From the IMG/VR virus record IMGVR_UViG_3300046718_000884: a stretch of DNA of 64,000 bases. One strand, 5' to 3'. A model generated the notes under the pieces. It was not told the DNA's origin, ran no database searches, and worked only from the letters and a program-made list of their open reading frames with translations. The DNA comes from an uncultured virus (IMG/VR IMGVR_UViG_3300046718_000884) (taxonomy: Duplodnaviria; Heunggongvirae; Uroviricota; Caudoviricetes). A program made the position numbers and the translations under genes. Of this stretch, positions 9,215-32,232 are shown in pieces (position 1 is the stretch's first letter; each line of letters starts with the position of its first letter).

Positions 9215-11665
9215 TTACTCAACTTTCTCGACATACCAACGGATTGCACCATGGGTGTTGCCGTCATCCTTTAAGAACCGCTTCTTCGCCGCGACCCTGC
9301 CGACGTACTTTCTGAGCCAATATTGCATGCGAGCGGTGTCAACTTCCGCGCCGCCACGGGCGGGAAATTGCTCCTTCATGATGGGGTAGAAGCCATCGAT
9401 CTTGGAATCCTTGACCGCGTCAGCGATGGTCTTGGGGGTTCCCTGGAACTCCGCATACCAACCCTCAAGCATCGCAGCTAAACGTATGGTTGCAGGATCA
9501 TCCTTCGCCGTGGTCTCCATCGTCTCTGCCGGATCGGTCTCGCCGAGCCACACCAGCGGCTCGCGCACGAAGTGCGACCACGCGCCGTAAGAGCCGAGCG
9601 AGAAGATCCCGAGCTTGGTCTGGCTAACGTGGTAGGCCCGCGCGATGATCAGGACGTCGGCGATGTAGCGACCACGGTCGCGGCGCGCGGTGATGATCGG
9701 GTCACCATCGAACGGGCGCCGCTCGGGATGCTCCTCGCCGGCGTCGAGGTCGCAGCGCATGGTGCGGCGGCCCTGTTCATCCACGATCGCGAGGTTGTTG
9801 CCGGTCATGTAGATGACCACGGCGTTCTCGATCTCCACGATCTCCAGCACGCCGAACAGGCGGATACTGATCAGTGGCCGCTCGGTCGCCATGTTCAGTG
9901 TGGGCGTGTCGATGTCGCGGCTGACATTGTCGATCGAGAACCCGGGCACACCGGCGATCAGCATGGCGTTGATGCCCTTCTCCGTCTCCTCGTCCTTCTT
10001 GCTGGTGCCCATGGCCGGGCATGGCCGACCGATTGCGACGGTACTGGCCAGATCCACGAGATGCGACTTGCCGGTGCCGGGCGCCCTGGCGGATACGGCA
10101 AGCAACGGCGACACCGGCATGGCGCAGCGCAAGACCTGGGTCTTGAGCATGGTCAGCGCGACGCTGCGGGAGGCGCGATTGACGAACGGGTAGGAGTCCA
10201 GCAGACCATTGAGCCGCCCCAAGGATTCCCGCGCGTCGTGTTCGGTCGGCGCCTCGGGGATCTCTGGCATCACCAGATCACTGGGGAACATCAGGTAGTA
10301 GCGTGACACAGGGTCATAGCCCGGTGTCATCAATAGCGAACCGTCGGGCCGGAGTGTGGGCGATGTCAGCACACCACGCACATGCGGAAACGGCCAGTCG
10401 CTGCGGTTGTTCAACACGATCTGCACCAGCTTGTCGGGCGGATCACAGACCACAAAAGCCCGACGCCTGCCGTCCCACTTCTGCCAGACCGCCACCTCGG
10501 ACAGCATCTTCATCAGCGCTGGCGCGGTGATCGGCACCAGCGCCGCGCTATGCGTCACACCACCGTCGGCAGTGCGATATTCCTGTTCGGTCGGCTGCAC
10601 GAGCATGCCGCGCTGATAGATCGGCGCGCCAGCCGCTAGCAGTGCCTCCTGGGCCTGCCGCACCATGCGCGGCAACTCGCCGGCCACGCAGACGATGACG
10701 CGCTGGCCGTCCGGCAGCGGATCGCCCCTGCCGTCGCCCTCCGGCGGTGGCGGCTCAGGCGGCTCACCACCCTCCTCCACCCCACCAGGGGGGTCGTCGG
10801 GTGGTACCTCACCGAGCGGCGGCGCCGCCGGCGGCACGTAGGGCGGCGCCTCGCGGGCGTGGTATTCCAGCCCCTCGACGGTGCCGCCGGCGTCCAGCCA
10901 GTCGGTGACGTCGCCCTTGGGCGGCAGGTTGGGTAGCAACAGCAGCTTGATCGAGGCGGCCACCGGGTAGAGCGAACGCGCCACAGTTGCGGCGTGTGCC
11001 TCACCCACTGCATCATTGTCGGCCAATACGACGACGTGCTTGCGCAAAAAATAGCGCTGCATTTCATCGCGCCACTTGCCAGAGCCGCCGATATTGCAGG
11101 TCGCGATTAATCCCAGCTTGGTGAGATTGTCGCAGTCCTTTTCGCCCTCGCAGATCCAGATGGTCTGCTCGCCCGAGGCCAGCACGCCGGGCAGCCGGTA
11201 GACCAACAGGTCATGGCCGGGCAGATCTCTGACGTTCCACTTCCACTTCTGATCGCCGCGCGCGGTGTAGCCATCGGGCCGGCGCTGGAAAAACCTGGGG
11301 TTGCCGTCGATCGTGCGGATGACGTCGAGGATCAGCGCGCCGTCGGCGTCGTGGTAGTGATAGACAACGCCGATGTTCTCCCACGGCTTCTGCCGCCCGG
11401 CGTGGCCGTTGGCGCCGTTGGCTTTGGGCCGCGCCGGCAAGGGACCGATCGCCATCTGGTGGAGTTCGCGATAGCCACCACCTTCATTGGCCTCATTGTC
11501 GAACCACACCAATTCGTTAATTTTGATACTCTTCGACTGATGCGCGCCGAAGCGCACTTCGTTCTTGTTATGCGACCAGTCGGTCGGTAGTCCCCACAGC
11601 TTGATGGCCAGCTCTAAGATGCTCGGCCATGACGGATCAGGCCGGAATGGCTCGCCGGCCATCAC
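9215..11665 (-). CDS. DNA primase (TOPRIM) fused to P-loop NTPase/helicase
   Basis: WICEGEKD, LADNDAVG, KGDVTDWL TOPRIM motifs; Pro-rich linker; PGTGKSHL Walker A, IDNV, MTGNN. Confidence 0.88.
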   Translation of the reverse strand: MMAGEPFRPDPSWPSILELAIKLWGLPTDWSHNKNEVRFGAHQSKSIKINELVWFDNEANEGGGYRELHQMAIGPLPARPKANGANGHAGRQKPWENIGVVYHYHDADGALILDVIRTIDGNPRFFQRRPDGYTARGDQKWKWNVRDLPGHDLLVYRLPGVLASGEQTIWICEGEKDCDNLTKLGLIATCNIGGSGKWRDEMQRYFLRKHVVVLADNDAVGEAHAATVARSLYPVAASIKLLLLPNLPPKGDVTDWLDAGGTVEGLEYHAREAPPYVPPAAPPLGEVPPDDPPGGVEEGGEPPEPPPPEGDGRGDPLPDGQRVIVCVAGELPRMVRQAQEALLAAGAPIYQRGMLVQPTEQEYRTADGGVTHSAALVPITAPALMKMLSEVAVWQKWDGRRRAFVVCDPPDKLVQIVLNNRSDWPFPHVRGVLTSPTLRPDGSLLMTPGYDPVSRYYLMFPSDLVMPEIPEAPTEHDARESLGRLNGLLDSYPFVNRASRSVALTMLKTQVLRCAMPVSPLLAVSARAPGTGKSHLVDLASTVAIGRPCPAMGTSKKDEETEKGINAMLIAGVPGFSIDNVSRDIDTPTLNMATERPLISIRLFGVLEIVEIENAVVIYMTGNNLAIVDEQGRRTMRCDLDAGEEHPERRPFDGDPIITARRDRGRYIADVLIIARAYHVSQTKLGIFSLGSYGAWSHFVREPLVWLGETDPAETMETTAKDDPATIRLAAMLEGWYAEFQGTPKTIADAVKDSKIDGFYPIMKEQFPARGGAEVDTARMQYWLRKYVGRVAAKKRFLKDDGNTHGAIRWYVEKVE

Positions 11666-14793: not shown

Positions 14794-14978
14794 GCTGCAC
14801 GACGCTCCAGGCGGTCGACAACCCGGCGCATATGCAGCTCAATCAATGCGCTGCGGGTGATCATGTCGCGCTCGGCGATCTCGCTGATCTGGCGGATCAG
14901 CGCGGGTGACATCGATACGGTGATCGACACCTTCTTTACCCCCAGCGGCAGCGGTCGCGGGCCACGTGGCATTGACAT
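14790..14978 (-). CDS. ribbon-helix-helix (CopG/Arc-like) DNA-binding protein
   Basis: KVSITVSMSPALIRQISEIAERDMITRSALIE; AGGAG SD. Confidence 0.75.
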   Translation of the reverse strand: MSMPRGPRPLPLGVKKVSITVSMSPALIRQISEIAERDMITRSALIELHMRRVVDRLERRAA

Positions 14979-15009
14979 TGATGGTCTCCTGTTTCTCATA
15001 AGCAGCTAG

Positions 15010-15035
15010 TTGACAGATCCGGCGCGAGATGTCAA
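15010..15035. promoter_or_regulatory. TTGACA-N14-TGTCAA dyad in the divergent control region
   Basis: Lies between the divergently transcribed RHH and Gp157-like genes. Confidence 0.5.
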
Positions 15036-15045
15036 ATGGTGAAAC

Positions 15046-15597
15046 ATGAAAGCCCCAAGCAAACCCACCACCCCGCCGACCGCTCTGCAACTGGAGCAGT
15101 CGATGTCATTATGGATGCAGCTCCAGCAGATGCCCGACGAGGAAGGGTTCCGGCTGGACGAGGAAGAGATCGAGCAGCGCATCCGCGAGGCCGGCCTGCG
15201 CCAGCCGCACGAGATGCTGGCCGCATTGATCGACGTGGCGTTCACCCTCGACCAGCGCGCCGACCACGCCGACAGCCTGCGCCGGCGCTACGCCGACAAG
15301 GCCGCACGCTACCGCGAGCGCGAGGAACGCACGCGCGCCACGGTCAACCGGATGATGGAGATCTTAGAGGTGACCGCCTGCGAGGCCGAACTCGGCACCG
15401 CCTCTTTCGCCAAGCCGCGCAAGACCGTGGTCATCACCGATTTCGATGCCCTGGACGAGCGGTTCATCCGCCGCACCGACCCCGAGCCGCGCAAGCTCGA
15501 CATCGCCGCCGCCATCAAGGCCGGTGAGACAGTCGCGGGCGCCGAGATGTCGGACCCCGGCAACTCACCGCCGGTGCTGCGGCTGACTAAGTATTGA
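15046..15597 (+). CDS. siphovirus Gp157-family protein
   Basis: Coiled coil then VVITDFDALDERFIR...PRKLDIAAAIKAGETVAGAE; next to an SSAP gene. Confidence 0.75.
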   Translation: MKAPSKPTTPPTALQLEQSMSLWMQLQQMPDEEGFRLDEEEIEQRIREAGLRQPHEMLAALIDVAFTLDQRADHADSLRRRYADKAARYREREERTRATVNRMMEILEVTACEAELGTASFAKPRKTVVITDFDALDERFIRRTDPEPRKLDIAAAIKAGETVAGAEMSDPGNSPPVLRLTKY

Positions 15598-15622
15598 CGA
15601 TCGTATATACAGGAGCAACCCC

Positions 15623-16702
15623 ATGCCCGATGACGCCCGTAAACTCCCCACCATCACCGCAGCCGAGCGCCTCGGCCAGTTCATCGAGGAGGCCGCGCTC
15701 AATCCCACCTTCGACGCCGATAAATTCACCCAGGTCGTGAGGTTGCACATGGACATCCAAGACCGTCAGGACAAAGGTGATTTCAACGAGGCGTTTGCTG
15801 CCGTGCAGGGCGATCTGGACCCGATCGTGCGCAATGCCGAGAACCGTCACCTTGGCAACAAATATGCCGGCCTCGACGCGGTCGACGCGGTGCTGCGACC
15901 GGTGTGCCGCAAGCATGGGCTGTCCAGCCGCTTCGGATCGATGGACGGCGCCCCCGAGGGTCACGTCCGCAAATGTCTGACGGTGTCCCTGGGGCGATAT
16001 TCTGAAACGATCTTCCTCGACTTCCCCGCCAGGGTGGCCGGCTCGCGCGGCGGCACCACCCAGATGAACGAGCAGCAGCAGGTCGGCGCGGTGTCCACCT
16101 ATGCGCGACGCTACCTGCTGCAGGAGTTTTTCAATCTGTCCACCATCGCCAACAGGATCGATGACACTGACGGCGATACCGGCGGCGGTGGGACGGGTGG
16201 CACGCGCACGACCGGCACCAAGACCGAGACCAAGACTGACACCACCACGGACACCAAGACCGAGACCAAGGTCACACCGCCCGATGGCGCGACGGTGTTC
16301 CCCTCAATAGCGAAAAACCTAGCGCGCGCGGTGACGCTGGCGAACCTCGACAGCCTGGAGCGCAACGGCACGATGGTGTCGTATCGCGGCCAGCAGACGC
16401 CGAACAATCAGGCGCTGATCGATGGCATGTTCGCCGCGCGTCGCGCCGAGCTGACCACGAGCCAGCCTGCGGACCTGCCGGATGATCTTGACCTGGGGAC
16501 CACCACCACGTCGCCCGGCGAACCATCCGAGTTGCTCACCCGGGTGCTGGCGCGCATCGCTAGCTGCCTGACCACGGTGGCGCTGGACTCGTGCGCGGTG
16601 GCGCCCGAGTTCACGACCGACGTCGCGCGGCTGAACACCGCCGAGGGCGAGCGGGCGACCGAGGCGATGAAAGCGCGCTATCGTGAGTTGGAGGCCAAAT
16701 GA
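15623..16702 (+). CDS. erf: ERF-family single-strand annealing protein
   Basis: FNEAFAAVQ...KYAGLDAV...KHGL...GAVSTYARRY; Thr/Lys-rich linker; C-terminal extension. Confidence 0.82.
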   Translation: MPDDARKLPTITAAERLGQFIEEAALNPTFDADKFTQVVRLHMDIQDRQDKGDFNEAFAAVQGDLDPIVRNAENRHLGNKYAGLDAVDAVLRPVCRKHGLSSRFGSMDGAPEGHVRKCLTVSLGRYSETIFLDFPARVAGSRGGTTQMNEQQQVGAVSTYARRYLLQEFFNLSTIANRIDDTDGDTGGGGTGGTRTTGTKTETKTDTTTDTKTETKVTPPDGATVFPSIAKNLARAVTLANLDSLERNGTMVSYRGQQTPNNQALIDGMFAARRAELTTSQPADLPDDLDLGTTTTSPGEPSELLTRVLARIASCLTTVALDSCAVAPEFTTDVARLNTAEGERATEAMKARYRELEAK

Positions 16703-17037
16703 AGCGACCACCCAGCAGCGGAGAGGCTCCCAACGGCCCACAGGGGGTCGTGGGAGGCGCTAGCGGCGGCAACGTGCAACCCCTCCGCCGGCTCGACCCG
16801 GTGATGCAGGGAGCCTATCAGGAGGCGCTGGAGCGCCTCTTGGAGGCGATGTGCCTGACCGCCAGCATCAACCAGCCCGCCGCCGCCGCCTATGCGGTGC
16901 TGTTCCGGACCTGCGAGGTGACCGCGCCGTTCGGCGAGCACGGCGAGCACACGGCGAAGATCCTGCGCGGCCTCGACCGACGCCTGCGCGCGCATCTGGC
17001 CGGCGGCTCCCACAAGCCTGATCCGGACGCCGCGTGA
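16699..17037 (+). CDS. hypothetical protein
   Basis: GGAGG SD, ATGA overlap. Confidence 0.55.
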   Translation: MKRPPSSGEAPNGPQGVVGGASGGNVQPLRRLDPVMQGAYQEALERLLEAMCLTASINQPAAAAYAVLFRTCEVTAPFGEHGEHTAKILRGLDRRLRAHLAGGSHKPDPDAA

Positions 17038-17177
17038 TGCTGTTCGGCATCCTCATGGTGATCCTGGCACTCTGGGCGATCGTCGCCGCGACCAATGCCG
17101 ACGCGGCCTGGGCGGTACTGATCGGGCTGTTCGGCACGGTCGGGCTGATCTTCTGGGCGCTGGCCACCGTGCTATAG
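17037..17177 (+). CDS. small two-TM membrane protein (46 aa, below track cutoff)
   Basis: MLFGILMVILALWAIVAATNADAAWAVLIGLFGTVGLIFWALATVL; TGATG coupling. Confidence 0.6.
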   Translation: MLFGILMVILALWAIVAATNADAAWAVLIGLFGTVGLIFWALATVL

Positions 17178-17183
17178 GGGGTG

Positions 17184-17339
17184 ATGGAGACCGCCCTGGA
17201 GCGTGAGCTGCGGGCCGAGATCGCCGAGCTGCGGCGCCAGAACGCCGATCTGGAGCGGCAGAACCGTGAGCTGCGCGAGGCGGTCACGGCGCTGATGGCG
17301 GCGCCCAAACCACCCGACGAACCCGGATCGTTCTGGTAG
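17184..17339 (+). CDS. small coiled-coil protein (51 aa, below track cutoff)
   Basis: METALERELRAEIAELRRQNADLERQNRELREAV... Confidence 0.55.
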   Translation: METALERELRAEIAELRRQNADLERQNRELREAVTALMAAPKPPDEPGSFW

Positions 17340-17350
17340 GGTCGCGGCGC

Positions 17351-17428
17351 ATCAATGGGTTAGCCCTGTCGGAACTCTTTACACATGCGTTGCGAGATAC
17401 TGTGCTTCACTATGGCGGTTACCTTGCA
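17351..17428 (+). promoter_or_regulatory. sigma54-type promoter with enhancer-like box and IHF-like site
   Basis: ATCAA-N4-TTA (17351-17362); TGTCGGAACTCTTTACA (17367-17383); TGGC-N7-TTGCA (17413-17428). Confidence 0.62.
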
Positions 17429-17443
17429 AGGGAACCCACCACG

Positions 17444-18097
17444 ATGCGCAACCTCCTCCTCTCCACCATCGCCGCTGCCGGACTGGCCCTGGCCACGCCG
17501 GCAAGTGCCGCGCTGATCTCCTCGGCGTCCGCACCCGGCCAGCTCGCCGCCGGCGCCTGCTCGGCCAACGACGGCGGCACCGGCTCGCTGAACACCAATT
17601 GCTCCGGCGGGATCTACTCGTCCATCGCCATCTCGGCGGCGGCCCCACCGCTGCTGAACGCGCCAGACCTGAGCGCCACCACGCTGACGGTGAAGACCAC
17701 CGGCCTGGGCGCGGGTAGCTCGACGCTGGACATCAACATCGACAGCAGCGGCTTCGCGTTCGCCGGTGGGCCGGTGACCGCGATCTTCACGGTGAACAAC
17801 CTGATCGGCGGCGGCGCGGGACCCTTCGTGCTGATCGCCTCGTCACCGGCGGGCACGCTGTCGCATACGTTCACCGCGTCGGGCAGCGCGCAGGACGGCC
17901 CGACGGTGCTCGGGGCGTTCACCTCCGATCACGCCGAGTTCCAACTGACGTTCACGGGGAACACGGTGCAGTCGCTCGATGCCACGATCGAGATCGTCGG
18001 TGCATCCGAGCCGGTGAGCATGGCGCTGCTGGGCGTCGGCCTGCTCGGCCTCGGCATGGTGCGCGGCAAGCGTCGCGATCCCGGTGCGGTCGCATGA
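17444..18097 (+). CDS. PEP-CTERM-type sorting domain protein (SEP variant)
   Basis: Signal peptide MRNLLLSTIAAAGLALATPASA; S/T/G-rich body; C-terminus ASEP-VSMALLGVGLLGLGMV-RGKRR. Confidence 0.82.
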   Translation: MRNLLLSTIAAAGLALATPASAALISSASAPGQLAAGACSANDGGTGSLNTNCSGGIYSSIAISAAAPPLLNAPDLSATTLTVKTTGLGAGSSTLDINIDSSGFAFAGGPVTAIFTVNNLIGGGAGPFVLIASSPAGTLSHTFTASGSAQDGPTVLGAFTSDHAEFQLTFTGNTVQSLDATIEIVGASEPVSMALLGVGLLGLGMVRGKRRDPGAVA

Positions 18098-18792
18098 TGC
18101 GGCTGGCGGCAGCCGCTGGGATGGTGGGAGCGCTTGCTCTCACCACGCCCGCCATGGCGGTGCCGGTGACGGACACGTTCTGCGGGCCAAGCTCCGGCCA
18201 GGGATGCGAGGTCGGTGGCGAGAAGATGGTGTTCCTCCAGGCCAAGACAAACACCATGCATGGCCTGGGGAATATCGGTTCGCAGAACGGGTTGCCGCTG
18301 ATGCACATCGATAGCGATGGCGGCAAGCTATCGTTGTTCATCGACCTGAAGAACGGGTTCGCGACGATCAAACCGACGAACGGGATTTCGTTTAACGGTT
18401 TGGACATCACGGTGCCCGGCTTCGGTTTTACCGAGCTGGTGTTTGACGTGCAGCTCACGCCGGAGTCGAAGAAAGCCAAGACCGAGTCCTTCACCATCGA
18501 AGGTTTCAGTGGAAACCATATCAGTGACGGCCTCGGCACCGAGACCGACAAACCGGACGCGGACACCGAGTTCTCGATCACCGCGCATGGCGGGGTGTTC
18601 GATGAGGTCAACATCGCCAGCCTCACCGGTTTCGATGAAATCAAACACATCGAAATCGGCGGGGTCTGCGCCATCCAGTCGAATGGTTCCTGCACGCCGG
18701 TGATCATCGAGACGCCGGAGCCGCTCACCCTGGCGCTGCTCGGCACCGGGCTGTTCGGCCTCGGGCTGGTGCGTCGGATACGTCGCGACTAA
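18094..18792 (+). CDS. PEP-CTERM sorting domain protein
   Basis: Signal peptide ...ALALTTPAMA; C-terminus TPEP-LTLALLGTGLFGLGLV-RRIRRD. Confidence 0.88.
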   Translation: MMRLAAAAGMVGALALTTPAMAVPVTDTFCGPSSGQGCEVGGEKMVFLQAKTNTMHGLGNIGSQNGLPLMHIDSDGGKLSLFIDLKNGFATIKPTNGISFNGLDITVPGFGFTELVFDVQLTPESKKAKTESFTIEGFSGNHISDGLGTETDKPDADTEFSITAHGGVFDEVNIASLTGFDEIKHIEIGGVCAIQSNGSCTPVIIETPEPLTLALLGTGLFGLGLVRRIRRD

Positions 18793-18856
18793 GCTCGCAG
18801 CACTCACGTCCCTATGGGGGTTCTGCCCCCGTGGGTGTTCAACCGAACCGGACTAT

Positions 18857-18890
18857 GCCCCGCCCGCCCCCCAATGGGCGGGGCTTTTTT
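18857..18890 (+). terminator. rho-independent terminator
   Basis: GCCCCGCCC/GGGCGGGGC stem followed by TTTTTT. Confidence 0.75.
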
Positions 18891-18905
18891 ATGCGGGGGT
18901 CGCCG

Positions 18906-19700
18906 ATGCCGCAGATCGCTTTCATCCTGGCCGCGACCGAGGCGGGGCCGATGATCGTCAACCGCCTCGACGTCCACACCACCGAACACGGCTTCTTCGG
19001 CGTCGGCGCCGAGCTGCTACAGGCCGGGCACTACGCCGAGCAGGACATCCAGGGGCTGGCCGGCGTGCTGAGCCTGCGCCGTCAGCACTGCGGTGACGGC
19101 GTGGTGGCGCTTGATATCGGCGCCAATATCGGCACCCACACTGTCGCCTGGGCCAAGCTCATGACCGGGTGGGGCGAGGTGCTCGCGGTCGAACCGCAGG
19201 AGCGCGTCTACTACGCGCTGGCCGGCAACATCGCGATCAACAACCTGTTCAACGCGCGGGCGCTGCAGGCGGTGATCGGTGAGCACGACGGCTGGATCGA
19301 GATCCCGGTGCTCGACCACACCAAGCCCGCTTCGTTCGGCTCGCTGGAGCTGCGGCCCTGCTCCGAGGAGGCGATCGGCCAGACGCCGGAGCGATCCGAG
19401 CGCGCCAGGATGGTCCGCATCGACACCATCCTCGACACCGGTCGCGTCGACCTGATCAAGCTCGACGTCGAGGGGATGGAACTGGCGGCGCTGGGGGGTG
19501 CCGAGATGACCATCGAGCACTGGCGCCCGGTGTTGTTCGTGGAGTGGGCCAAGTGTGGCGCCGAGCCGCTGCGGACGTGGCTGGCGGCGCGTGGCTATGA
19601 CAGCCACGTGCTGGGCATCAACCTGCTGGCGATCCACCAGCAGGACCCGGTGGCGGCGCACGTACAAAAAAGCCCCCCTGGCGCGGGCCAGGGGGGATAA
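18906..19700 (+). CDS. FkbM-family SAM-dependent methyltransferase
   Basis: ALDIGANIGTHT, AVEPQ, VDLIKLDVEGME, RPVLFVE. Confidence 0.88.
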   Translation: MPQIAFILAATEAGPMIVNRLDVHTTEHGFFGVGAELLQAGHYAEQDIQGLAGVLSLRRQHCGDGVVALDIGANIGTHTVAWAKLMTGWGEVLAVEPQERVYYALAGNIAINNLFNARALQAVIGEHDGWIEIPVLDHTKPASFGSLELRPCSEEAIGQTPERSERARMVRIDTILDTGRVDLIKLDVEGMELAALGGAEMTIEHWRPVLFVEWAKCGAEPLRTWLAARGYDSHVLGINLLAIHQQDPVAAHVQKSPPGAGQGG

Positions 19701-19776
19701 GGCTGGAGTGCAAACGAGTAGGAAAACGAACGTCGCTGGCTATGTATGGCCGGACGACGGCGCGGCAAGTGACGAT

Positions 19777-20040
19777 TCAGTCACCGCTCTCGCCGATATC
19801 CGTCAGGCTCACCCGCGACGGTGACAGCGTCGAGGCCACCGCCTGGGCGCGCTGCTCTTCCGCCCGCCGCTGCTGCGCCACCTGTTCCGCCGCTTGGTTG
19901 CGGAAGAAGAAGATCAGCTCGCTGATCTCTTCGAACGGCTGCTTGGCCAAGATCCCTTGCATGCGGTTGAACACGTCGAGCGGCATGCTGAGCGTGATGG
20001 TCGGGTTGTTGGTGGGCTGCGGTGGTGGCTGCATGAGCAC
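19777..20040 (-). CDS. hypothetical phage protein
   Basis: AGGAG SD; LAKQPFEEISELI motif. Confidence 0.6.
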   Translation of the reverse strand: MLMQPPPQPTNNPTITLSMPLDVFNRMQGILAKQPFEEISELIFFFRNQAAEQVAQQRRAEEQRAQAVASTLSPSRVSLTDIGESGD

Positions 20041-20055
20041 GGTGCGTCTCCTAGG

Positions 20056-20712
20056 CTAGACCGGCGTCGGCGTCGGCGGCGAGCCGCTGGGCGGCAGCGT
20101 GTTGTCCACCCCAGGCGGTGCCGACGGCAGGCCCTGGTCGGGGTGCAGCGAGGGATCGACGCAGACGTAGCGCCAGCCGATCCCGGGGATGCCGACGACC
20201 ACCCAGTAGTATTGGCTACCCGGCAGTCCTTGATCGGGAGCGGTCGGCCCACCCGGCAGGCCCTGGTCGGGGTGCGGCGGTTCGCCGGTTGGCGGCACCG
20301 GCCCACCACCGACCACCGGCGGCGGCACGATGGGACCACCACCGACATGCGGCGGGCGTCCAGGCGCGGGACCGCCACCGACATGCGGCGGGCGTCCAGG
20401 CAGACCCTGGTCGGGACGCGGCGGACGGCCACCACCACCCCAGGACGGCGGGCGGCCCCCACCGATCGGCGGCCAGATGGCACCCGGAGGCGTCCCCGGC
20501 GGCGCCGGCTGGATCGGATGGGAGGGCGTCAGCGGCGGCCACACACCGGGCGGTGGGCGCGGCAGCGAGTTGTCGATGCCGGGCGGTATCCCGGGCAGCG
20601 AGTTGTCGATACCGGGCGGCAGTGTGTTGTCGGGGCCGGGCGGCACGCCGGGCAGCTCGTTGTCTACGGAGCCATGCGAGGTGACGCGCAGAAAGCCTTG
20701 AACAAAAGGCAT
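20056..20712 (-). CDS. Pro/Gly-rich repeat protein
   Basis: AGGAGGGG SD; repeated (V/I/P)DN(S/T/E)LP and PDQGLP units; YYWVVVGIPGIGWRYVCVD segment. Confidence 0.7.
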   Translation of the reverse strand: MPFVQGFLRVTSHGSVDNELPGVPPGPDNTLPPGIDNSLPGIPPGIDNSLPRPPPGVWPPLTPSHPIQPAPPGTPPGAIWPPIGGGRPPSWGGGGRPPRPDQGLPGRPPHVGGGPAPGRPPHVGGGPIVPPPVVGGGPVPPTGEPPHPDQGLPGGPTAPDQGLPGSQYYWVVVGIPGIGWRYVCVDPSLHPDQGLPSAPPGVDNTLPPSGSPPTPTPV

Positions 20713-20801
20713 ATGATTCTCCCCTCCTCTTCTAGTGGGTGATGAACAGGCACGTAATGGCAGCAGATGTAAAGGCCGCTGCAACCTGGGCGGGCTGAAC
20801 G

Positions 20802-23800
20802 TCACACCATCATCACCACCCGCGCCTGTCCACTCGACGTGGCGTCTTGCAGCTCGGCGGTGGACAGCACGCGCGGCCAGTAGCGGATGCGCGACTTATA
20901 GCCGTTCTGCGCGGCTTGCCGAATGGCGCTTAGGTTCATCCGGGTGATGGTGACCGGCGTGGTGCCGGTGGCGGTGGCTATCGGGCCGGCGTTCAGACAG
21001 CCGGTGAGAGTGCCACCGGCATAGGTGATCGCCGCTCTGAGTGGTGCGTTCGCGGTCGCGAGGTTGGTGGTGTTTCCTGGCGTCCCTCCGACGCCGGCGC
21101 TCGCCGCCACGATCTGCCACTGCGAGGTGCCGGCAGCAACGCGTCCGATGTAGCAGTTGTTGATGCTGGCATCATCGAGACCGATGACATCCTGATTACC
21201 CGACGCACCGACCTGCGGCATCGTCATGTCCACTGCCATGGTGCCCTGCGCCGGGTTGAGCCACGGCGCGATCGTCATCGGTATGAAGCAGACATCAGCC
21301 GCCCGCGTCAGGGACCCAGCCGGCGTCGGCAGATAACTGGTGGCGAACACCGTCGCCGCGATCGACGTCTCGACCTGCGGTCCCCAGACGAAGATACCGA
21401 GGCCGGTGCTGGCGGGCGTGTAACCCTGGCCGACCAGCGTGACGGTCGACGGAGCGGGGGTGATACCAAACACATAAGCCCCGCCGCCGGTGGCAACGCT
21501 GGTCGCGGTGACCGACACGCGATACCAACCGTTTGGGAACGCCGTGATGGTGCAGGTCGAACCACCCGACGTCGTCACGATGGTGCCGGTCGTCAGATCG
21601 AACAAGCCGCCCGTATTGCCGGCAGGAAACGCGGTATTGCTAAAAAACAGCGACACGCGCGTATAGGTATTTGCCTTTACAAACGCACTGCCACAATAGT
21701 TGGTGCTTACCGCGCCGGTATATGGCCGGTATATAAGATGGGCATTACCCGCCACATCATTGGTCACCACGCTCGACGCGTTGGTGGTGCCGTCCGGTGA
21801 CACAGCCACATTGTCGGTCGCCAACACGCAGCCTGCCGGCGAGGTGGCCCAGGGCACCAGGGCGACACTGGAATTGAGCAAATTCGCCCGCGCCTCTTCG
21901 ATCAGCAGGCCGAGCGGCGTGCGGGAGACCGGATCGTAACCGAACCTCGGCACGTTGGCTGCCGCGTATTGGATCGTGGCGTTGGCGTCGATATAGGTCG
22001 CGGTCGAGTTGCGTGCGAACGAGAGCTGCGGATCGAGCGTCGGGCCGAGCAGACTGATATCGATCGTCGGCGCGAGATCCGGTCCGGTGACCTGTTGCAA
22101 CTCGGTGTCGGCCAGGATGCGCGGCCAGTAACGCGTGTGACGTATCCAGCCGCCCAGCGGCGAGGTGCGGCCAGAAGCAATCGCCAGCCGGTTCAGCACC
22201 GTCGGCGTCGCGGTGAAGGTGAACGGCGCGATGGTGCCGGCGTTCTGCACACAACGCCCGGCCAGCCCGGTGCCGTCGAACGTCGAGGCCTGCTTCATCA
22301 CGATGTTGGCCGAGAAATTACCGGAGGCGCCAGTGCCCACGGAGACGCCGGCTGAAAACACCGTCACCGAATTGGTATTCGTGGGGCTGGCATTGCGGAT
22401 GTTGTAGAGGTTGTTGGTCGAGCCGTCGTCCAGCTCGATCGTGACGAGACCCGACCCGGCGGGCAGCGTCGCGTAGGTGACCACGCTCTCGGACTCGATG
22501 GTGTTGCTCAGCAGGTTGACCCCTGGGACCGCGTTGGTGGCGGTGTAAGCCGCTTCACCGGCGCGCGTTGAGGCGCCGGGCGTGCCGGCGGGCGGCAGCA
22601 CCAGCGAGGTTACCTGGGACCCCAGCTCGATCTGTATTCCGGCGAGGCGCACGGTGAAATCAAGCGCGCTTGCGGTGATCGGGATCTGCAGGAAGGGTTG
22701 CACAAACGCACAGTTCGACGCGGTGGTGAATGCGTAGTTCACTCGCGTCTTGGTGAGAGCGTCTCCGACGGACATGCCAATGGTGGACAGCACGAAATTG
22801 GTCGATGACAGCGTGGTAAGCGCGGTGCCGGTCGAGTCGTATTGGTTGAACCGCAGGTTGAAGTTGGTGAACCCGGTGAAACTGCCAGCTGGAAACGACA
22901 GATAGAGCGAGAATATATAGGCGGTGCTGGCGGTCACCGGGATCGACGCGGTCGAGGCTGCCGAGAATATGAAGTTGTTGTTGAACGTCGGCGCCGCAGC
23001 GTTCTGATTGCGATATTCCACATAAGGCAAACCGCGCTCGGTGCCGGTGGCAATGGTGCGCGTGACGTTGACCGAGTTGGTGCTCCACCCGGTCGGGTCG
23101 GTGCCCGGCGACCCCACGACCGCGCCCTCGCCCCGTGGGTTGGGCACGAGGTTGGTGCGGGCGACTTCCATCAGCAGCCCGAGCGGCTGCAGCGAGACCG
23201 GATTGTAGTCGAGCCTCGGTATGTTCAAGCCGGCGGACTGCAGCGTGCCGTGATTGTCAAAATAGGTGCCAGCCGAAGCACGCTGGAACGTCAGACCGCC
23301 GGGCAGCACGCCGGTGGTGAAGTCATGATCGAGCGTTGGCGCCAGAGTGGCGGCTTGCAGGTCGGCGTTGGCCAGATCGTAGGGCCAGTAGCGAGCGCGG
23401 TAGATCGTGCCACAGAGATATAGGCTGGTGTTCGCGGAGCCGATCCCCAGCGTGGTCAAGCCGCTCTGGATGTTTGCAAAAACGCCAGCACCCACCGTCC
23501 CGCCATTGAGGCTGCCGGCCTGCCTGCCGCCGCGAATCGCGCCGATCGCCTGATAGATCGGGCCGTTGAACGACGTGCCCCCGGGCAGGTCCACAACCCC
23601 GGCAACCGCGTCGCTGATCGAGATGTTGCCCGAAGCGCGATGCAATAGGCCGGAACGGTTGGCACCGACATAGGCGCCAAAGGGCACGCAGGCGTTGATG
23701 TTAAGGAACGGTTCCGACGCCTGCACGTAGTAGGTGCTGGCCGCCGGATTGAACCAACTGCCGACCGGCATGGTGCAAAGATCCGCCGCGCGCGTGACGA

Positions 23801-24305
23801 AGGTGCCGGTGGTCGGGATGTAGGATGTCGGGAATGAAACGCCGGACGTGGAGACACCACGCTCCAGTTGAAATCGCGTCAATGATCCGCTGACAGTAAC
23901 GACCATGGTGCCGGCAGTCGTCATGATGAAGGACGCCGGGGTGCCGGCGGTGGCGGTGACGGGGAGAGTGGTGGAGGACGCGCCGGTGCCGGCGGTCACT
24001 GTAGCGCTGCCGGTGCCGATCACCCAGAGGATATGCACGTTATTCGCCGGCGCCCCGAGCGTGACCGTGGTCTGTGTCGCCGGCGCATCGCTGTTCAGCA
24101 GGTAATTGGTGCGGAGTTCTTCGGTATAGAGGCCGCCACCGATGAAGCGCGGCGCATTGGCCGCGTAGGTCGTGTAGGTCGACCCCGCCGCATCGGTGTA
24201 GAAGCTGTTCGTCGCAACACTGGCGCGTGCGAAGGTCAAGCCGGCGGGCAGCACGCCGGTGGTGAAATCGAGATCAAGCGCTGGAACCCTGAGCGTGCCG
24301 GACAT
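20802..24305 (-). CDS. large virion fibre/spike protein with three tandem lectin-like modules
   Basis: Three repeats starting LD.DF..G.LP.GLTF.R.S and ending RYWP..L...(E/D)LQ; E..RTN and QxE.G...TSY.PT motifs. Confidence 0.72.
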   Translation of the reverse strand: MSGTLRVPALDLDFTTGVLPAGLTFARASVATNSFYTDAAGSTYTTYAANAPRFIGGGLYTEELRTNYLLNSDAPATQTTVTLGAPANNVHILWVIGTGSATVTAGTGASSTTLPVTATAGTPASFIMTTAGTMVVTVSGSLTRFQLERGVSTSGVSFPTSYIPTTGTFVTRAADLCTMPVGSWFNPAASTYYVQASEPFLNINACVPFGAYVGANRSGLLHRASGNISISDAVAGVVDLPGGTSFNGPIYQAIGAIRGGRQAGSLNGGTVGAGVFANIQSGLTTLGIGSANTSLYLCGTIYRARYWPYDLANADLQAATLAPTLDHDFTTGVLPGGLTFQRASAGTYFDNHGTLQSAGLNIPRLDYNPVSLQPLGLLMEVARTNLVPNPRGEGAVVGSPGTDPTGWSTNSVNVTRTIATGTERGLPYVEYRNQNAAAPTFNNNFIFSAASTASIPVTASTAYIFSLYLSFPAGSFTGFTNFNLRFNQYDSTGTALTTLSSTNFVLSTIGMSVGDALTKTRVNYAFTTASNCAFVQPFLQIPITASALDFTVRLAGIQIELGSQVTSLVLPPAGTPGASTRAGEAAYTATNAVPGVNLLSNTIESESVVTYATLPAGSGLVTIELDDGSTNNLYNIRNASPTNTNSVTVFSAGVSVGTGASGNFSANIVMKQASTFDGTGLAGRCVQNAGTIAPFTFTATPTVLNRLAIASGRTSPLGGWIRHTRYWPRILADTELQQVTGPDLAPTIDISLLGPTLDPQLSFARNSTATYIDANATIQYAAANVPRFGYDPVSRTPLGLLIEEARANLLNSSVALVPWATSPAGCVLATDNVAVSPDGTTNASSVVTNDVAGNAHLIYRPYTGAVSTNYCGSAFVKANTYTRVSLFFSNTAFPAGNTGGLFDLTTGTIVTTSGGSTCTITAFPNGWYRVSVTATSVATGGGAYVFGITPAPSTVTLVGQGYTPASTGLGIFVWGPQVETSIAATVFATSYLPTPAGSLTRAADVCFIPMTIAPWLNPAQGTMAVDMTMPQVGASGNQDVIGLDDASINNCYIGRVAAGTSQWQIVAASAGVGGTPGNTTNLATANAPLRAAITYAGGTLTGCLNAGPIATATGTTPVTITRMNLSAIRQAAQNGYKSRIRYWPRVLSTAELQDATSSGQARVVMMV

Positions 24306-27300
24306 TACACGCGCGACGCCAGGATCGTGATGCCGATATCGGCGAGCGTCGCATCCTGCGTCGCGGGAGCGACCATCTGCATCACGTCGCCGATCGCCAG
24401 CGAGCCGCCGGCGCCGGCCAGGGTGGCGCTGGTGTTGGTGGCGCTGGTGATGGTGACGGTGCCCAGTGCCGTCGTGGTGCCGCCGGAGATCTTGTTCAGC
24501 GTGAACACCGCATTCCCGGTCGCCTTGGTGGTGTCATACGCCACCGCGCCCGCGAGCGCCGCCGGCACGGTGATCGCCATTGCCATCGGCACGTTGACCA
24601 CACTGCTGCCCGGTGGCTTGCCGGCGAACGGGAAGCTGATCGGCAGTTGCTGCACCTCGGTGGGCAACGCGCTATAGGGCAGCGGGCCGGTGGTCGAGGA
24701 GTCGGTGATCAGACCGAAGCCGGCCATCGCGGCCAGCAGGCTGGTGACTGCGGGGATGCCGCCCTGCACACCGGTCACGGTTTGCTTGGCGATCGGGGTG
24801 GCACCATTGAACCCCAAGCGCGCGGTGCTGCTCATATTGATCTGCAGACCGCCGTTGGTGCTGGACGAACCATAGATCGCGGCGGGGGATGTCGAGGTGG
24901 CGCCCGGCAGCAGCAGCAGGTTGTTGCCGCCAGGGGGTGCCGCGACATTGAATCCGCCGCCATTAACCTGCACGACACCGGACCCGCTCGGCGCGAGCAC
25001 GACGTTGTCGCCCGCTGTCGCACCCGGAGTGATCTGCAGCGCGTCGTTGGTGCCGACGGTGCCGAAGCTATGCGGGCCGACACCGGTCGCGGTCAGGTTG
25101 TCGGCGACGGTGAGGCCGCCGGTGCCGGTGGTTGCCAGCGTGACGTCGTTGGTTCCCGCTGCACCCGGCGTGACCGTCAGCGCGTTCTGCGCCCCGGCGC
25201 CGACCGACAACGTGCCGGTCTGGGTGGCATTGGTCACCGTCAGCGCGCCGATCTGCGCGTTGTTGGTCACCGTCAGCGCGGTGCCAGCAGCAGCGAACGT
25301 GGTCGCGTTCGGCACCGTGCCACCGGTGAAGCCGGTGGGGGGAACGCCGGAAATCACCCCGGTGCCGTCGATGACGATCGTGGTGCCGTCGATCTTCACG
25401 CCACCCAGCACGGTGGTGCTGGCGATGGGCAGCACATAGTTGCCGCCGGCAATCGAGGAGTTGGTGATCAGTCCGTAATTGGCCAGCGAGGTCAGCAGGC
25501 TGGCGAGCGCGGTGCCGTCACCCTGGTTGCCGCTGACGGTGGGCTTGGCGATAGGGGTGGTGCCCAAGAATCCCAAGGGCCGCGTGTTGGCGCCTACCAT
25601 CAGGCCGCCAGTGCCGGATGGCGTGATGCCGGCATAGGCCGAGCTGCTGGCACCGGACACCAGGGAGACGGTGTTGTTGGTGAGTGTGAGACCCACCGTC
25701 AGTGAGGTGGTGATCGGCGGCAGGATCAGGCCGCCGGTGCCGGTCTGCGCGATCGATATCGCGCCGGCGGCGGTGGACCCCGGGGTGATCTGCAGCGCGT
25801 TGTTGGTGCCGCTCAGGCCGAACACGTGGCCCCCTGGCCCGGTGGCGACGACGTTGCCGGTGGCATTGACGTTGCCCTGCGACGTCAGGCTCGGGACGGT
25901 GACGGTGCCGGTGCCGCCGACGGTGAGGCCGCCGGTGCCGGACGGCGTGAGTGTGACCGGGTTGGTTCCCGCCGCGCCCGGCACGATCGTCAGGTTGTTG
26001 GTCGTGCCAGGAGTGTTGGTGATGACGAAATTGCCGGCGCGGGTGAAGCCGGTGCCGAGCGTGACGGTGACATCGCCGCCGATGCCGGAGGTCAGCGCAT
26101 TGCCGGCGGTCAGCGTGATCGGGCCGCCGCCGAGCTTGGAGTTGCCGGCCTTCAACGCGATCGAAGCCGGATTGCCGCTGGTCTGGCCGGACGCGTCACC
26201 GGTGGTCAGGCTTATGCCGCCGGTGCCAGTTGTCGCGGTGGTGCTGGTAATGGTTGATATACTTACTCCGCCGGAAGACGTCGTGCCGGCGCCGGATTGT
26301 ATAGTTATAGCTCCGGAAACTACCGCGTTCGTGGTTTGTAGAAAAACAGTACCGCTGGAACCGGTGGTGCTGCCGCCGCTTTTAAGGGTTACCGAACCAC
26401 TATTAAATCCGGTGCCGCTGCCGCTCTGCACTAATAGGTTTGCGGTGTTGGTGGTGGCGCTGTCAGCCGTCTGGATGGAGAGCTGGCCACTCGCGCTGGT
26501 GACGATCGTCGCGCCCTGCGTCGCGGTGCCGCCGGGGGTGATGGTGACGCCGTTCACTGGCGCGGCGCCGACCTGCAACGTGCCGGTCTGCGTGGTGTTG
26601 GTGACGGTGACCGCCGTGCCGGTCGCGGTGAAGGTTGTGGCGTTGGGAACGGTGCCGCCGGTGAAGCCACCGCCGCTCGATGCCACGGCGGCGGTGACGT
26701 AGGCGGTGGTGGCCACCGTGGTGTCGTTGATGGTGGGCGCCGGTGTCGGCGTGAACACCGGCCCGGCAAACGAGAACCCGCCGGTGCCAAACTGCGCGAA
26801 GGTGATCGGGTTGGCCAGCGCCGGCCCAGGCGCCACCGTCAGGTAGTTGTTCGTGGTGCCGGGGGCTTTGACGACGAAATTGCCGCCCTTGCCGGTGCCG
26901 AAGCCGGTGCCGAGCGTGACGGTGAGGTCACCGCCATTGGCGTTGCTCGCGGTGGCCACACCGGTCAGGAGCTGGATGCCCGCTGCGTCCCGCCCGCCGG
27001 TGCTCTTGCCGACCGTCAGGACGATCGGGTTGCTGGCACCGAAGGTGCTGGAGGCGTCGCCGGTGCTGATGTTGACCGCGCTGCCGACCGTCCCGCCGCC
27101 GGTGCCGATGGTGACCGCACCGGTGACCGACGGATCTGTGCCGGTGCTGGTGCCGGTCTTCAGGGTGAGCGTGCCGGTTGCGGTGGTGGAGTCAGGCGTG
27201 GTGATGCTGATGGCGCCGCTGGTGGCACCGGCGGCGGTGCCGCCGGTCAGCGTGATCGCGCCACCCGGCCCGGTTGCGCCACCCGGCCCGCCCCTGATGG

Positions 27301-29908
27301 TAACAGCGCCGCCGGCGCCGGTGCCGAAGCCGCCGCCCGAGGTGACGGTGATATCGCCGCCGGCGGCGTTGCCGGTGGTGGTGGCATTGCTACCGAGGAG
27401 CGAGAGGGGGCCACCGCGCTGGCCGCCCGAGGAAGAGCCAACCTGCAAGTAGATGCCGTTGGAGCCGGTTGTGGCGGTGCTTGAATGCGTGCCCGTGGTA
27501 AGCTGGATGTTCTGCGCCAGCGACGCGTTGCCGGTGGTCAGCGAGATCGCACCGCTCATGCCAAAGCCGGTGGTGGGTCCTCCTCCGGTTTTCAGGACCA
27601 CACCGCCGGCCTGCCCATTGGCGGCGCTCGCGGTTCCGGTTTGCAGCGTCAGGGTGCCGGTGACGGGGCCATCAGGCGAAGCCAAGGTCAGCGGGCCGGT
27701 GCCGGCGCTGCCCCCGGCGGCGGCGCCGCTGGTCATTGTAATGCCGCCGCCATTTCCTGTCGCACCGCCGGCACCAGCATTGACGGTGACATTGCCGCCC
27801 TTGCCGGTGCCGAAGCCGCTGCCGATCGTCACCGTCAGGTCGCCGCCGAGGCCGTTGCCTGTCGTGGTGGCGCTGCCGGTGGTGAGCGTAATGGCACCGG
27901 CATTCTTGCCGCCGGTCGTGTTGCCAGTCCGCAAAGAAATCGGCCAAGTGTTGGCGGTAGTGTGTGAATGCGTGCCGGTGAACAGATTAATACCGTTCAC
28001 ATTACCTGAACCGGTAGATATATTTATTGTGCCACTAATACCAGTGCCGGTTCCATTACCGGTTGTCAGATTGATGTCACCGGTTTGCACGCCCGACGCG
28101 CCGGTTTTCAGCGTGATGCCGCCGGACGAACCGGTCACGCCATCCGGTGTTAGCAGCGTGAGCGCGCCCGAGTCGGTGGTTGACGCGATCGTCGCGGCGC
28201 TGACCGTCGTCGCCCCCGGCGTGATCGTCACGGCATTGTTGGCGCTGGTGCCCACCGCGAGCGTGGTGAAGGCACCGGTGTTCGGCAGCGCGCTGCCGAT
28301 CGGCGGCGGTGAGGAGAACGCCCCAGTCAGCCCAGCGCCGGAGATCTGCCCGGTGACCGCGAGCGTGCCGCCGAGGGTGGTGTTGCCGGTGGCGCTCAGC
28401 GTGCCGTTGATCGATACCCCGCTGGCACTGATCTGCGTCCAGTAGGCGCTACTGTTACCGACCGGCGCGCCGGTGGCATCCGCCGGATAGAACGAGATCT
28501 GCGAGCCGAGATTGGTGCCGTAGATTCCCGAGCCTGAGCCGGAGCGGAAGAATGCGATCCCTGCCGCATCCGTCGGATCGGCGAGCGATGACCAGTTCAG
28601 CAGCAGCCGCGCCGAGCCTGACGTCGCCGCGTTGGCCAGCGTGGTGAGCGGGCCGAGCTTAGTGTTGTTGGTCACCGTCAGCGCGGTGCCGGTCGCGGTG
28701 AACGTCGTGGCGTTCGGGACGGTGCCGCCGGTGAAGCCCACGCCGGGGGCCGAGATCACGCCGGCATTGATGGTCACCGTGGTGCCGTCGATCTTCACGC
28801 CACCGAGCACCGTGGTGCTGGCGGTCGGCAGCACGTAGCCGCTGGTCCCGGCGGCGATCGCGGCGGTCACGTAGGCCGTGCTGGCGACCTGGGTGGTGTT
28901 GGTGCCGGGTGCCGCTGTCGGCGCCGTCAGCACACCCGTGACGGCCAGCGTGCCACTGACGGTGGCGTTGCCAGTGATCTGCACCACGCCGGCAGGCGTG
29001 CCGGTGCCGGGCTGCAGCACGATATTGCCGGAGGGTCCGCCGGTGTTTTGATTGCCGGTCGAAATGGTAACCGCGCCGGTCGCCCACGGCCCAGACGGCA
29101 CGGTGCCGGTCGTGATGAGAACCGGACCAGACGAAGATGTGGCGTTGCCGGTGCCGGAATAGAGGGAAATCCGGCCACCCAGTCCTGCACTACTCGACCC
29201 GGCTACCATCATCACGCTAGGAGACACGGCACCGGTGGTGGCGGCCCCCTGGAATACAAGCGTGCCGACGTAACTGACGGTCTGGTTGCTGGTCTGGGTG
29301 AGGTTGATCGTGTTGGCGAAGGTCGCGATGCCGCTGACGCTCAGCGCGCTGAACGCGCCGGTCGACGGATTGACGAGGCCGATCGGCGTGCCGGTGAGGC
29401 CGTTGGCCACCGACAGGGTGTCCATCAGGAAGGCGGACCCCTGCACGACGAACTGGCAGCCGACGGTGATCGTGCCGGTGCCGCCGGCGCCCTGGTCGAT
29501 CGTGCCGCCGGGTAGATGCAGGTTGAGGCCGGTGATGTTGCCGGAGGCCTGCACGGTGGCGCTGTAGACGCCGCCGCTGACGTGCAGGTCGCCGACCACG
29601 TTACCGGTCAGCAGCGTAGGCGCGGGGGTCCAGTCGTGGTTGAGCCGGCAATAAGGTGTGCCGTCCGATGGCGCGTCGGGGATGCCGCCGCCGGCGCCGC
29701 CGACGCGCGCGTCGACATAGGCCTTCGACGCGGCGTGCAGGTCGAGCGACGGCGATTGGCCGAGGGTGAGGTTGCCGACCACGCTCGGGTTGGTGAGCAC
29801 ACCGCTCTCGGCGTCGACCTTGCCGGCGAACAGCCGGTTCCAGTCGTCGGCCAGCGGCACGTAGTCGGGATAGAAGTTGGCGCTGCTGTTGGGAATGACA
29901 TCGCTCAT
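24305..29908 (-). CDS. giant Gly/Thr-rich tail-fibre/adhesin-like protein (~1870 aa)
   Basis: Start MSDVIPNSS after GGAG; many G.I.L.TG repeats; [13 protein letters not shown] and [18 protein letters not shown] fibre motifs. Confidence 0.78.
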
Positions 29909-32222: not shown

Positions 32223-32232
32223 GCAGCCTCCA

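Follow-up and report, generated by a model that had tools for sequence, protein, structure and literature searches.

A pair of adjoining genes, here called A and B, lies in a 64,000-nucleotide stretch of DNA from an uncultured virus (IMG/VR record IMGVR_UViG_3300046718_000884; Caudoviricetes), the whole of which is referred to below as the window. The window belongs to a contractile-tailed (myovirus-type) phage from soil or rhizosphere metagenomes. Both open reading frames (ORFs) encode proteins with a signal-peptide-like N-terminus and a C-terminal tail of the kind known as PEP-CTERM, the sorting signal of bacterial exosortase systems. The stop codon of ORF-A overlaps the start codon of ORF-B in the tetranucleotide ATGA, and because of this overlap the two proteins are presumably made together. 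The pair is closed by an intrinsic-terminator-like hairpin of 10 base pairs, 9 of them G-C, with a loop of 8 and the run TTTTTT behind it (Table 1); a scan of positions 14800-20200 found 5 terminator-like sites against 2.2 expected. Two coupled ORFs with these ends and a terminator after them had been described in an initial annotation, made from the sequence alone, and this description stands.

At their N-termini, ORF-A reads MRNLLLSTIAAAGLALATPASA followed by ALISS (junction TPASA/A) and ORF-B reads MMRLAAAAGMVGALALTTPAMA followed by VPV (junction TPAMA/V). A basic n-region, a hydrophobic core and an AxA site can be discerned by eye in both, and these elements are conserved in the alignments of the A family (alignment A2) and of the B family (alignment A1). 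In the structural models the putative signal peptides (residues 1-19 of ORF-B and most of residues 1-22 of ORF-A) have a low predicted local distance difference test score (pLDDT). ORF-A ends in GASEPVSMALLGVGLLGLGMVRGKRRDPGAVA and ORF-B in ETPEPLTLALLGTGLFGLGLVRRIRRD. In both tails, an xEP motif, about 16 hydrophobic Gly-rich residues predicted to form a helix, and a cluster of Arg and Lys follow each other in this order at the extreme C-terminus. The tail of ORF-B consists of PEP, LTLALLGTGLFGLGLV and RRIRRD; that of ORF-A consists of SEP, VSMALLGVGLLGLGMV and RGKRR, the first Pro of PEP being replaced. A regular expression for the tail picks ORF-A and ORF-B alone out of the 281 six-frame ORFs of at least 80 residues in the window, and the occurrence of the tail in the pair exceeds chance.

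By both curated models ORF-B is a PEP-CTERM protein: it scores 24.2 bits with PF07589 (cut-off 20.7) and 19.8 bits with TIGR02595 (cut-off 16). Its family comprises 57 homologues at E<=1e-3, which are 45-97% identical to the window protein and of which 27 are listed with a precomputed PF07589 match. The A family comprises 42 homologues at E<=1e-3 (38-93% identity to the window protein), 20 of them with such a match. Almost all of these homologues come from metagenomes and are unnamed. Alignment A2 shows E189 and P190 to be invariant and PEP to be present in 19 of the 23 aligned members, the window copy with its SEP and three others differing at the first position; the A family can be classed on this alignment as mostly PEP-CTERM. 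In alignment A1, P208 and E209 are at least 90% conserved, and conservation is complete or almost complete for Cys30, Cys38 and a GFDEIKHIE block. Invariant Cys pairs occur in both families and, as a hint of disulfides, fit an extracytoplasmic location. The B family is small: a search of 1.84 billion representative proteins with the A1 profile returned 377 at E<=1e-3, 132 at E<=1e-10 and 25 at E<=1e-30.

No ectodomain model of Pfam, NCBIfam or PHROG covers either family. ORF-A and ORF-B have no PHROG and no PADLOC match, and the 10 homologues scanned were likewise without a PHROG match. When seven ectodomains from these phages were stripped of their tails and compared with NCBIfam at E<=10, six gave nothing and one gave a single chance-level row, and a sequence search of solved structures found nothing at E<=1 for A or B except one chance row. 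The PEPxxWA-CTERM model NF035944 does not match the window ORF-A or ORF-B at E<=10. Two candidate relationships depend on the tail. Kinship with PepA (NF033554, cut-off 80) was suggested by 31.8 bits for ORF-B and 18.5 bits for ORF-A, but the match is lost without the tail; kinship between ORF-A and ORF-B was suggested by an hhalign probability of 97.5%, yet the confident columns are confined to the tail. Separately, two giant proteins, P0347 (2500 residues) and P0378 (2036 residues), match the C-terminal half of the B profile in 10 and 6 separate stretches, so that the B fold may also serve as a repeat unit in large surface proteins.

Nine phages carry two or more tail-bearing genes, and in all nine the tail type is the same for every such gene of the phage. 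Six of them have classic tails, and three (L008, L009 and L010) have PEPxxWA-CTERM tails of the form PEPxTWAM. Five of the six proteins of the latter three pass the NF035944 cut-off of 35 bits, with 35.1-38.5 bits (L008, 35.5 and 36.0; L009, 36.1 and 38.5; L010, 35.1), and the partner in L010 is below it at 33.0. As classed by these tails, the B ectodomain occurs with two tail types, each matching that of its partner.

The distribution of exosortase, for which PF09721 served as the model, was examined in 401 sampled Pseudomonadota genomes and is above the cut-off in 69. The A2 profile has weak matches (27-37 bits) in six of the 401 genomes, and all six encode an exosortase, in a tally that includes the unpublished genome G391. 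Five of the eight A2 matches cover just the last 30-50 profile positions, that is, the tail, and the rest extend further into the ectodomain. The phage itself has no such enzyme, as the initial annotation had stated for the window: PF09721 is found in none of five viral records, those of this phage having been searched in six frames, and an exosortase is absent from a Pfam scan of 30 window ORFs. The five records include the two of this phage, which correspond to about window positions 1-61800 if collinear throughout (collinearity was checked for about 8100-29000), and G003, a record of 75,088 bp with direct terminal repeats and a completeness rating of 100%, in which genes of the B and D families are present. 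Since there is no phage exosortase, any sorting would need the enzyme of the host. Taken together, the conservation of the motif, the overlap with exosortase-bearing genomes and the match of tail types within a phage are indirect arguments that the tails are functional sorting signals.

Genes of both families recur in other phages. In the viral contig collection, 11 loci were found with a B-family gene and 9 with an A-family gene; after exclusion of the two records of this phage and of repeat matches on the same contig, 14 other viral contigs carry genes of one or both families. When compared with the window (tblastn, E<=1e-5), these contigs have no other gene in common with it, except that three (L006, L007 and L022) have, near their PEP-CTERM genes, a relative of the Pro/Gly-rich ORF at the end of the tail operon. 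Of the 14 fetched loci, seven have packaging or virion genes according to PHROG scans (L004, L005, L009, L010, L019, L020 and L025) and five have replication or recombination genes only (L006, L007, L008, L021 and L022); the scans of the short L011 and L012 gave nothing. The position of the genes varies: they occupy the interval between terminase and portal in L009 and L010, an A gene directly follows the terminase in L019, and others lie after a helicase in L008 and near a serine integrase in L025. The genes usually come in sets, which are A and B in the window, L005 and L006, A-B-A in L021, B with a third family, C, in L008-L010, and B with a fourth family, D, in L007 and L004. In L019 and L020 the DNA similarity to the window (82%) is limited to the mature coding part of A, 17492-18077. 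A side observation is that the viral contigs L011 and L012, with a GC content of 44-45%, carry a B-family gene with a PEPxxW-type tail; their base composition implies that the B family spans hosts or phages of very different GC content.

Bacterial relatives are, by comparison, few and remote. No close relative of B was seen when 185,579 species, each represented by one genome, were scanned by pattern. The scan returned three relatives, all of 31% identity, in metagenome-assembled genomes (MAGs) of Desulfobacteraceae, Thiobacillus and Hydrogenophilales, two of which encode an exosortase; a fourth match was a 52-residue fragment. One B homologue is deposited in NCBI under a bacterial bin, on a contig of 5.4 kb. 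Both ectodomain families therefore appear, in the genomes searched, to be essentially phage-borne and nearly absent from bacteria. The view of the initial annotation that such proteins are normally chromosomal is wrong for both families, which have 14 other viral carriers and, in the bacterial genomes searched, only remote (31%) or tail-only matches. The recurrence in unrelated phages had been missed by the initial annotation. Among isolate phages, 50,697 records contain no DNA or protein match to A, B or positions 15000-21000. A protein atlas also holds PEP-CTERM-like clusters with few labelled members that are 50-93% viral; this is a lead only.

The pair is truly phage-borne and is no chimeric join or assembly artefact. 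A second viral record, L003, is 100% identical in 15 of 15 compared genes, from the primase through the pair to the tail genes, and contigs from four further soil or rhizosphere runs, none of them flagged as a possible source, span both junctions without differences (for example 16000-17829, 16723-18792, 17256-19509, 17426-19253 and 18778-21000) at an even depth of about 6-8. The chimera that the initial annotation had named as a way to refute its proposal is thereby largely refuted. The stretch 16500-20000 is present in at least 24 runs labelled soil or rhizosphere metagenome, all from 2023 and possibly from one campaign; no RNA run is among these 24 listed runs. A cluster of 100% identical capsid genes occurs on contigs of up to 81,409 bp and the 44.8 kb record G001 has a CheckV completeness of 56%, which together put the genome at about 80 kb.

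The pair forms the end of a rightward block that consists of Gam, Erf, three small ORFs, A and B (Table 1). It is followed by a gene for an FkbM-family methyltransferase and then by the convergent tail genes. The placement between the recombination and virion modules given in the initial annotation is correct as to Gam and Erf on one side and the tail genes on the other, but the methyltransferase gene intervenes before the virion module.

Table 1. Features of the A/B gene pair and of the phage DNA around it, in positions of the window.
Feature	Position	Strand	Remarks
ORF-A	17444..18097	+	217 aa; signal-peptide-like residues 1-22; predicted beta-sandwich ectodomain; SEP, helix and RGKRR tail, residues 187-217
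ORF-B	18094..18792	+	232 aa; signal-peptide-like residues 1-22; predicted CBM-like (carbohydrate-binding-module-like) beta-sandwich ectodomain; PEP-CTERM tail, residues 206-232
Sorting-signal-like C-terminal tail of ORF-A	18002..18094	+	SEP variant
PEP-CTERM sorting domain of ORF-B	18709..18789	+	PF07589 match, residues 207-228; TIGR02595 match, residues 207-230
Intrinsic-terminator-like hairpin and T-run after the pair	18857..18890	+	stem 18857-18884
Untranslated gap 5' of ORF-A	17340..17443	+	104 nt; possible own promoter region
Small hydrophobic protein gene	17034-17177	+	47 aa; PHROG matches absent or weak
Small coiled-coil-like protein gene	17181-17339	+	52 aa; PHROG matches absent or weak
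FkbM-family methyltransferase	18906-19700 (start possibly 18891)	+	PF05050, 70.1 bits (cut-off 22.7)
Pro/Gly-rich ORF, end of tail operon	20056-20805	-	249 aa; no family match
Helicase	5939-7456		
Primase	9215-11665		
Gam	15046-15597		
Erf	15623-16702		
Tail and baseplate proteins	20802-36358		
Tape measure	36360-39605	-	endolysin-like domain, residues 832-956
Sheath	42401-44227		
Major capsid	49731-50786		
Head protease	51408-52946		

The FkbM-family enzyme next to the pair, which the initial annotation had overlooked, may be a sugar O-methyltransferase. Its similarity to RfbT of V. cholerae is weak (23.1 bits, below the cut-off of 27.9), and it also matches the methyltransferase family phrog_8156. 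In L005 a gene for a TylF-type O-methyltransferase (PF05711, L005 2891-3421) lies about 0.9 kb 3' of the B/A pair. The two enzymes hint at a small surface-glycan-modifying island, of which the FkbM gene is possibly a part together with A and B.

In the untranslated gap 5' of ORF-A, the 10-mer TGTCGGAACT is found at 17368-17377; it recurs at about 9265 in L006 and about 1027 in L021, in each case some 70-80 nt 5' of an A-family gene, and by a rough estimate the chance of this match is about 0.01. It resembles GGAAC, the consensus of the -35 box of promoters for extracytoplasmic function (ECF) sigma factors. A sigma-54 promoter candidate, TGGC-N7-TTGC at 17413-17427, was dropped: the window contains 6 such sites against 3.43 expected, and nothing similar is found 5' of the other 23 phage PEP-CTERM genes examined.

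The structures of both proteins were predicted with AlphaFold2. The model of ORF-B (pLDDT 82.6; predicted template modelling score, pTM, 0.74) is all-beta between about residues 26 and 202, with a helix behind it at residues 210-231, and that of ORF-A (pLDDT 71.0, pTM 0.63) is all-beta with a helix at residues 192-206. Foldseek found seven structures at E<=1e-3 for ORF-A, with a hyaluronan-binding module, surface glycan-binding protein B and CBM61 at the top. An exhaustive aligner gave for ORF-B, as its best match, a putative carbohydrate-binding module (Z 9.3, root-mean-square deviation 3.6, 132 residues aligned), followed by CBM29 (8.3), a module of the xylanase Xyn10B (8.2), CBM15 (8.1) and CBM8 (8.0), and for ORF-A it gave Bd1399 (Z 8.8) and surface glycan-binding protein B (8.6). 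The ectodomains are thus modelled as beta-sandwiches of the CBM type, which is a statement about the class of fold and not about function, and glycan binding is a lead only. A predicted complex of the A and B ectodomains (score 0.00, mark 0.32) counts neither way.

The host is probably an alphaproteobacterium. All five named matches among 120 listed homologues of the major capsid protein are from Alphaproteobacteria, namely Lichenicoccus (67%), Bosea (60%), an unnamed alphaproteobacterium (59%), Methylobacterium (58%) and Neorhizobium (57%). Lysogenic conversion, one of the roles that the initial annotation had offered, is unsupported: no tyrosine or serine integrase is found in the five viral records, which cover about 70 kb of the roughly 81 kb of this phage and the complete 75 kb G003, and the window has no tRNA. 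In L025 a serine integrase or invertase adjoins the A gene. Action during lytic infection is at least as likely as lysogenic conversion, and lytic expression is the simpler assumption. The complete 75 kb phage to which L004 belongs encodes, at L004 14085-16632, two PAPS-reductase-like proteins and a ParB-like protein; in view of the lack of an integrase, this phage could persist as a plasmid-type prophage.

With moderate confidence, A and B are interpreted as moron-like accessory genes whose products would be sorted by exosortase and, as glycan-binding proteins, would change the surface of the infected cell. Both proteins would be exported over the inner membrane by the Sec pathway with a cleavable signal peptide, and the C-terminal helix and Arg cluster would retain them in the membrane. 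An exosortase of the host would then recognise the (P/S)EP tail, process the protein at xEP and free the ectodomain to the cell surface or to the exopolysaccharide matrix, where the CBM-like ectodomains may bind surface glycan. The FkbM methyltransferase may act on the same glycan. The altered coat would either mask a polysaccharide receptor from other phages and from the phage's own progeny or change the aggregation of the cells.

Several observations weigh against this interpretation. ORF-A is below the cut-offs of both models, with 14.2 bits for PF07589 (cut-off 20.7) and 8.7 bits for TIGR02595 (cut-off 16), and has SEP instead of PEP, so that the check with these two models that the initial annotation had proposed came out in favour of B and not of A. 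Foldseek found no structure at E<=1e-3 for ORF-B, the best rows being CBM11 and CBM29, and the fold matches of both proteins are near the background of the aligner, for which a best Z of 7-8 is typical of models without a true match. The B proteins with PEPxxWA tails form one subgroup of alignment A1, and the number of independent switches of tail type is possibly as low as one. Only 69 of the 401 sampled Pseudomonadota genomes are exosortase-positive. PF09721 matched in none of the three sampled genomes with a relative of the capsid protein, which are the sole bacterial genomes that can be linked to the phage lineage; these relatives are distant (32-46% identity) and the genomes may be incomplete. 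The dependence on an exosortase of the host is suggested by the tails; no such partner was seen in those genomes. A sigma-70 scan of 14800-20200, which includes the 104-nt gap, found no promoter-like site. Moreover, knowledge of the effect of exosortase on PEP-CTERM proteins comes for the most part from genetics and comparative genomics.

The tails may instead be plain C-terminal membrane anchors with no involvement of exosortase, in which case A and B would face the periplasm from the inner membrane and take part in superinfection exclusion, in the blocking of injection or in another periplasmic role. A signal peptide, a C-terminal helix and a basic cluster suffice for such a topology, ORF-A has no canonical PEP and fails both models, and no exosortase-bearing host was seen among the three genomes with capsid relatives. 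An anchor would, however, need neither the conserved E-P or P-E just before the helix nor a joint switch of tail type in all partners of a phage, and the A2 matches, mostly to the tail, occur in exosortase-bearing genomes alone (6 of 6); the anchor is regarded as rather unlikely. A different possibility is that the two proteins are decoy substrates that saturate the host exosortase, so that PEP-CTERM proteins of the host remain unsorted, the matrix of the floc or biofilm loosens and the progeny escape. The tail evidence is the same for decoys as for surface-sorted proteins, and the SEP variant of ORF-A could be bound by the enzyme but left unprocessed; in Zoogloea and Aquincola, the formation of flocs is reported to require PEP-CTERM proteins (PMC12642866, PMC9850573). 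The conserved folded ectodomain of both families, with its invariant Cys, Asp, Glu and His, is something that a decoy could do without. The results gathered do not separate decoys from surface-sorted proteins, and the decoy is considered improbable.

Two further explanations have much less in their favour. A role in lysis or in the virion, for instance as spanin-like envelope proteins or as virion decoration, is suggested by the two overlapping genes with envelope-targeted products and by the location of the pair among late genes in L009 and L010. Neither putative signal peptide has a lipobox Cys, though, the pair has no holin or endolysin gene as a neighbour (an endolysin-like domain was found solely within the tape-measure gene), neither A and B nor the 10 scanned homologues match a PHROG, and a signal peptide with a C-terminal anchor is unfit for a virion protein of a tailed phage, which makes this role very improbable. 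The explanation with the least credit, and one that is largely refuted, is that the pair is passenger DNA without a role in the phage, captured recently from a host chromosome or joined to the phage in assembly. It would account for the fall in GC content within ORF-B to 0.57-0.61, from 0.65-0.71 in the flanks, and for the B homologue in the bacterial bin. Against it stand the identical second record with the same context, the contigs of four more runs that span both junctions at even depth, the GC content at third codon positions (0.86 in A and 0.82 in B, like phage genes), the presence of the families in packaging or replication modules of 14 other viral contigs, and the lack of a close relative of B in the scan of 185,579 species.

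The interpretation of A and B as surface-sorted accessory proteins can be extended to the other carriers, more tentatively and with less than even confidence. A guild of soil phages would possess exosortase substrates of its own, essentially restricted to phages and with tails adapted to the exosortase type of each host, and would through this exopolysaccharide-linked host pathway plant glycan-binding proteins on the cell. These and a glycan methyltransferase would jointly bring about, in the course of infection, a masking of the polysaccharide receptor or a change in aggregation. If this is true, it would be the first case of a virus that exploits the exosortase system.

The PEP-CTERM/exosortase system was reportedly described by Haft and colleagues in 2006. 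Chromosomal PEP-CTERM proteins such as PepA of Zoogloea resiniphila resemble A and B in having a signal peptide (putative in A and B), an ectodomain of about 160-180 residues and a tail of PEP, helix and Arg cluster. Gao et al. 2018 is cited in PMC12642866 for PEP-CTERM proteins in floc formation. Unlike PepA, A and B are encoded by a phage, are not near an exopolysaccharide or exosortase locus and have ectodomains that are not those of PepA. The modules CBM29, CBM15, CBM22 and CBM61 and the Bacteroides surface glycan-binding protein B are like the A and B ectodomains in predicted fold class and size; the identity is 6-14%, the Z of 8-9 is near background and there is no sequence-level match to a solved structure.

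Phage morons that alter the envelope include Llp of T5, Bor and Lom of lambda, SieA of P22 and the gtr or oac genes that modify O-antigen. A and B are like these in being probable accessory genes, presumably dispensable for the virion, with products predicted to be exported to the envelope, closed by a terminator-like hairpin of their own and placed at the border of modules, here recombination and tail, with a candidate glycan methyltransferase adjoining. They also recur in unrelated phages at varying genome positions, as morons do; a promoter of their own was not detected. The known morons differ from A and B in using lipoprotein, outer-membrane beta-barrel or inner-membrane routes, and no integrase that would point to a temperate lifestyle was found for this phage. 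No moron is known to use an exosortase signal.

Carriers of exosortase-type C-terminal domains among viruses or virus-like elements have been reported before. PMC11003980 lists 13 proteins of the TIGR03118 family among the host-derived genes of hot-spring viruses, and the preprint 10.64898/2026.09.15.751708 lists a PEP-CTERM domain protein (HOG10) in the IME1 elements of Dehalococcoides. These carriers are like the present phage in that respect. The reports differ in that the passages concerned are one-line listings, without analysis, of other families in other hosts, with no pairs, no match of tail types and no phage-restricted families. The sorting signal is therefore known and the phage as its carrier had been mentioned just in passing, while the ectodomain families are new. 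The remark in the initial annotation that it knew of no characterised phage system of this kind agrees with the literature searched (mostly titles and the starts of abstracts, with few subscription journals), in which no study of phage-encoded exosortase substrates was found.

PEP-CTERM proteins matter in flocs, biofilms and soil aggregates, and their roles and the action of exosortase are poorly understood. Two-gene phage cassettes with clean tails would offer compact test substrates for exosortase processing. The cassettes further hint at changes that soil phages make to the exopolysaccharide coat of the host, which would bear on host range, superinfection and aggregates in soil and wastewater. 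The match of tail types within a phage might become a new marker with which the hosts of uncultured phages are predicted.

Three further ORFs of the window, all on the minus strand, may be mentioned. Two large ones in the structural region, 24305-30007 (1900 residues) and 53411-56035 (874 residues), have no PHROG or Pfam match. The third, 56322-57485 (387 residues), lies among the head genes. Its similarity to glycosyltransferase family 9 (heptosyltransferase) is weak (21.0 bits; cut-off 22), and it may be a further gene directed at the glycan of the envelope.

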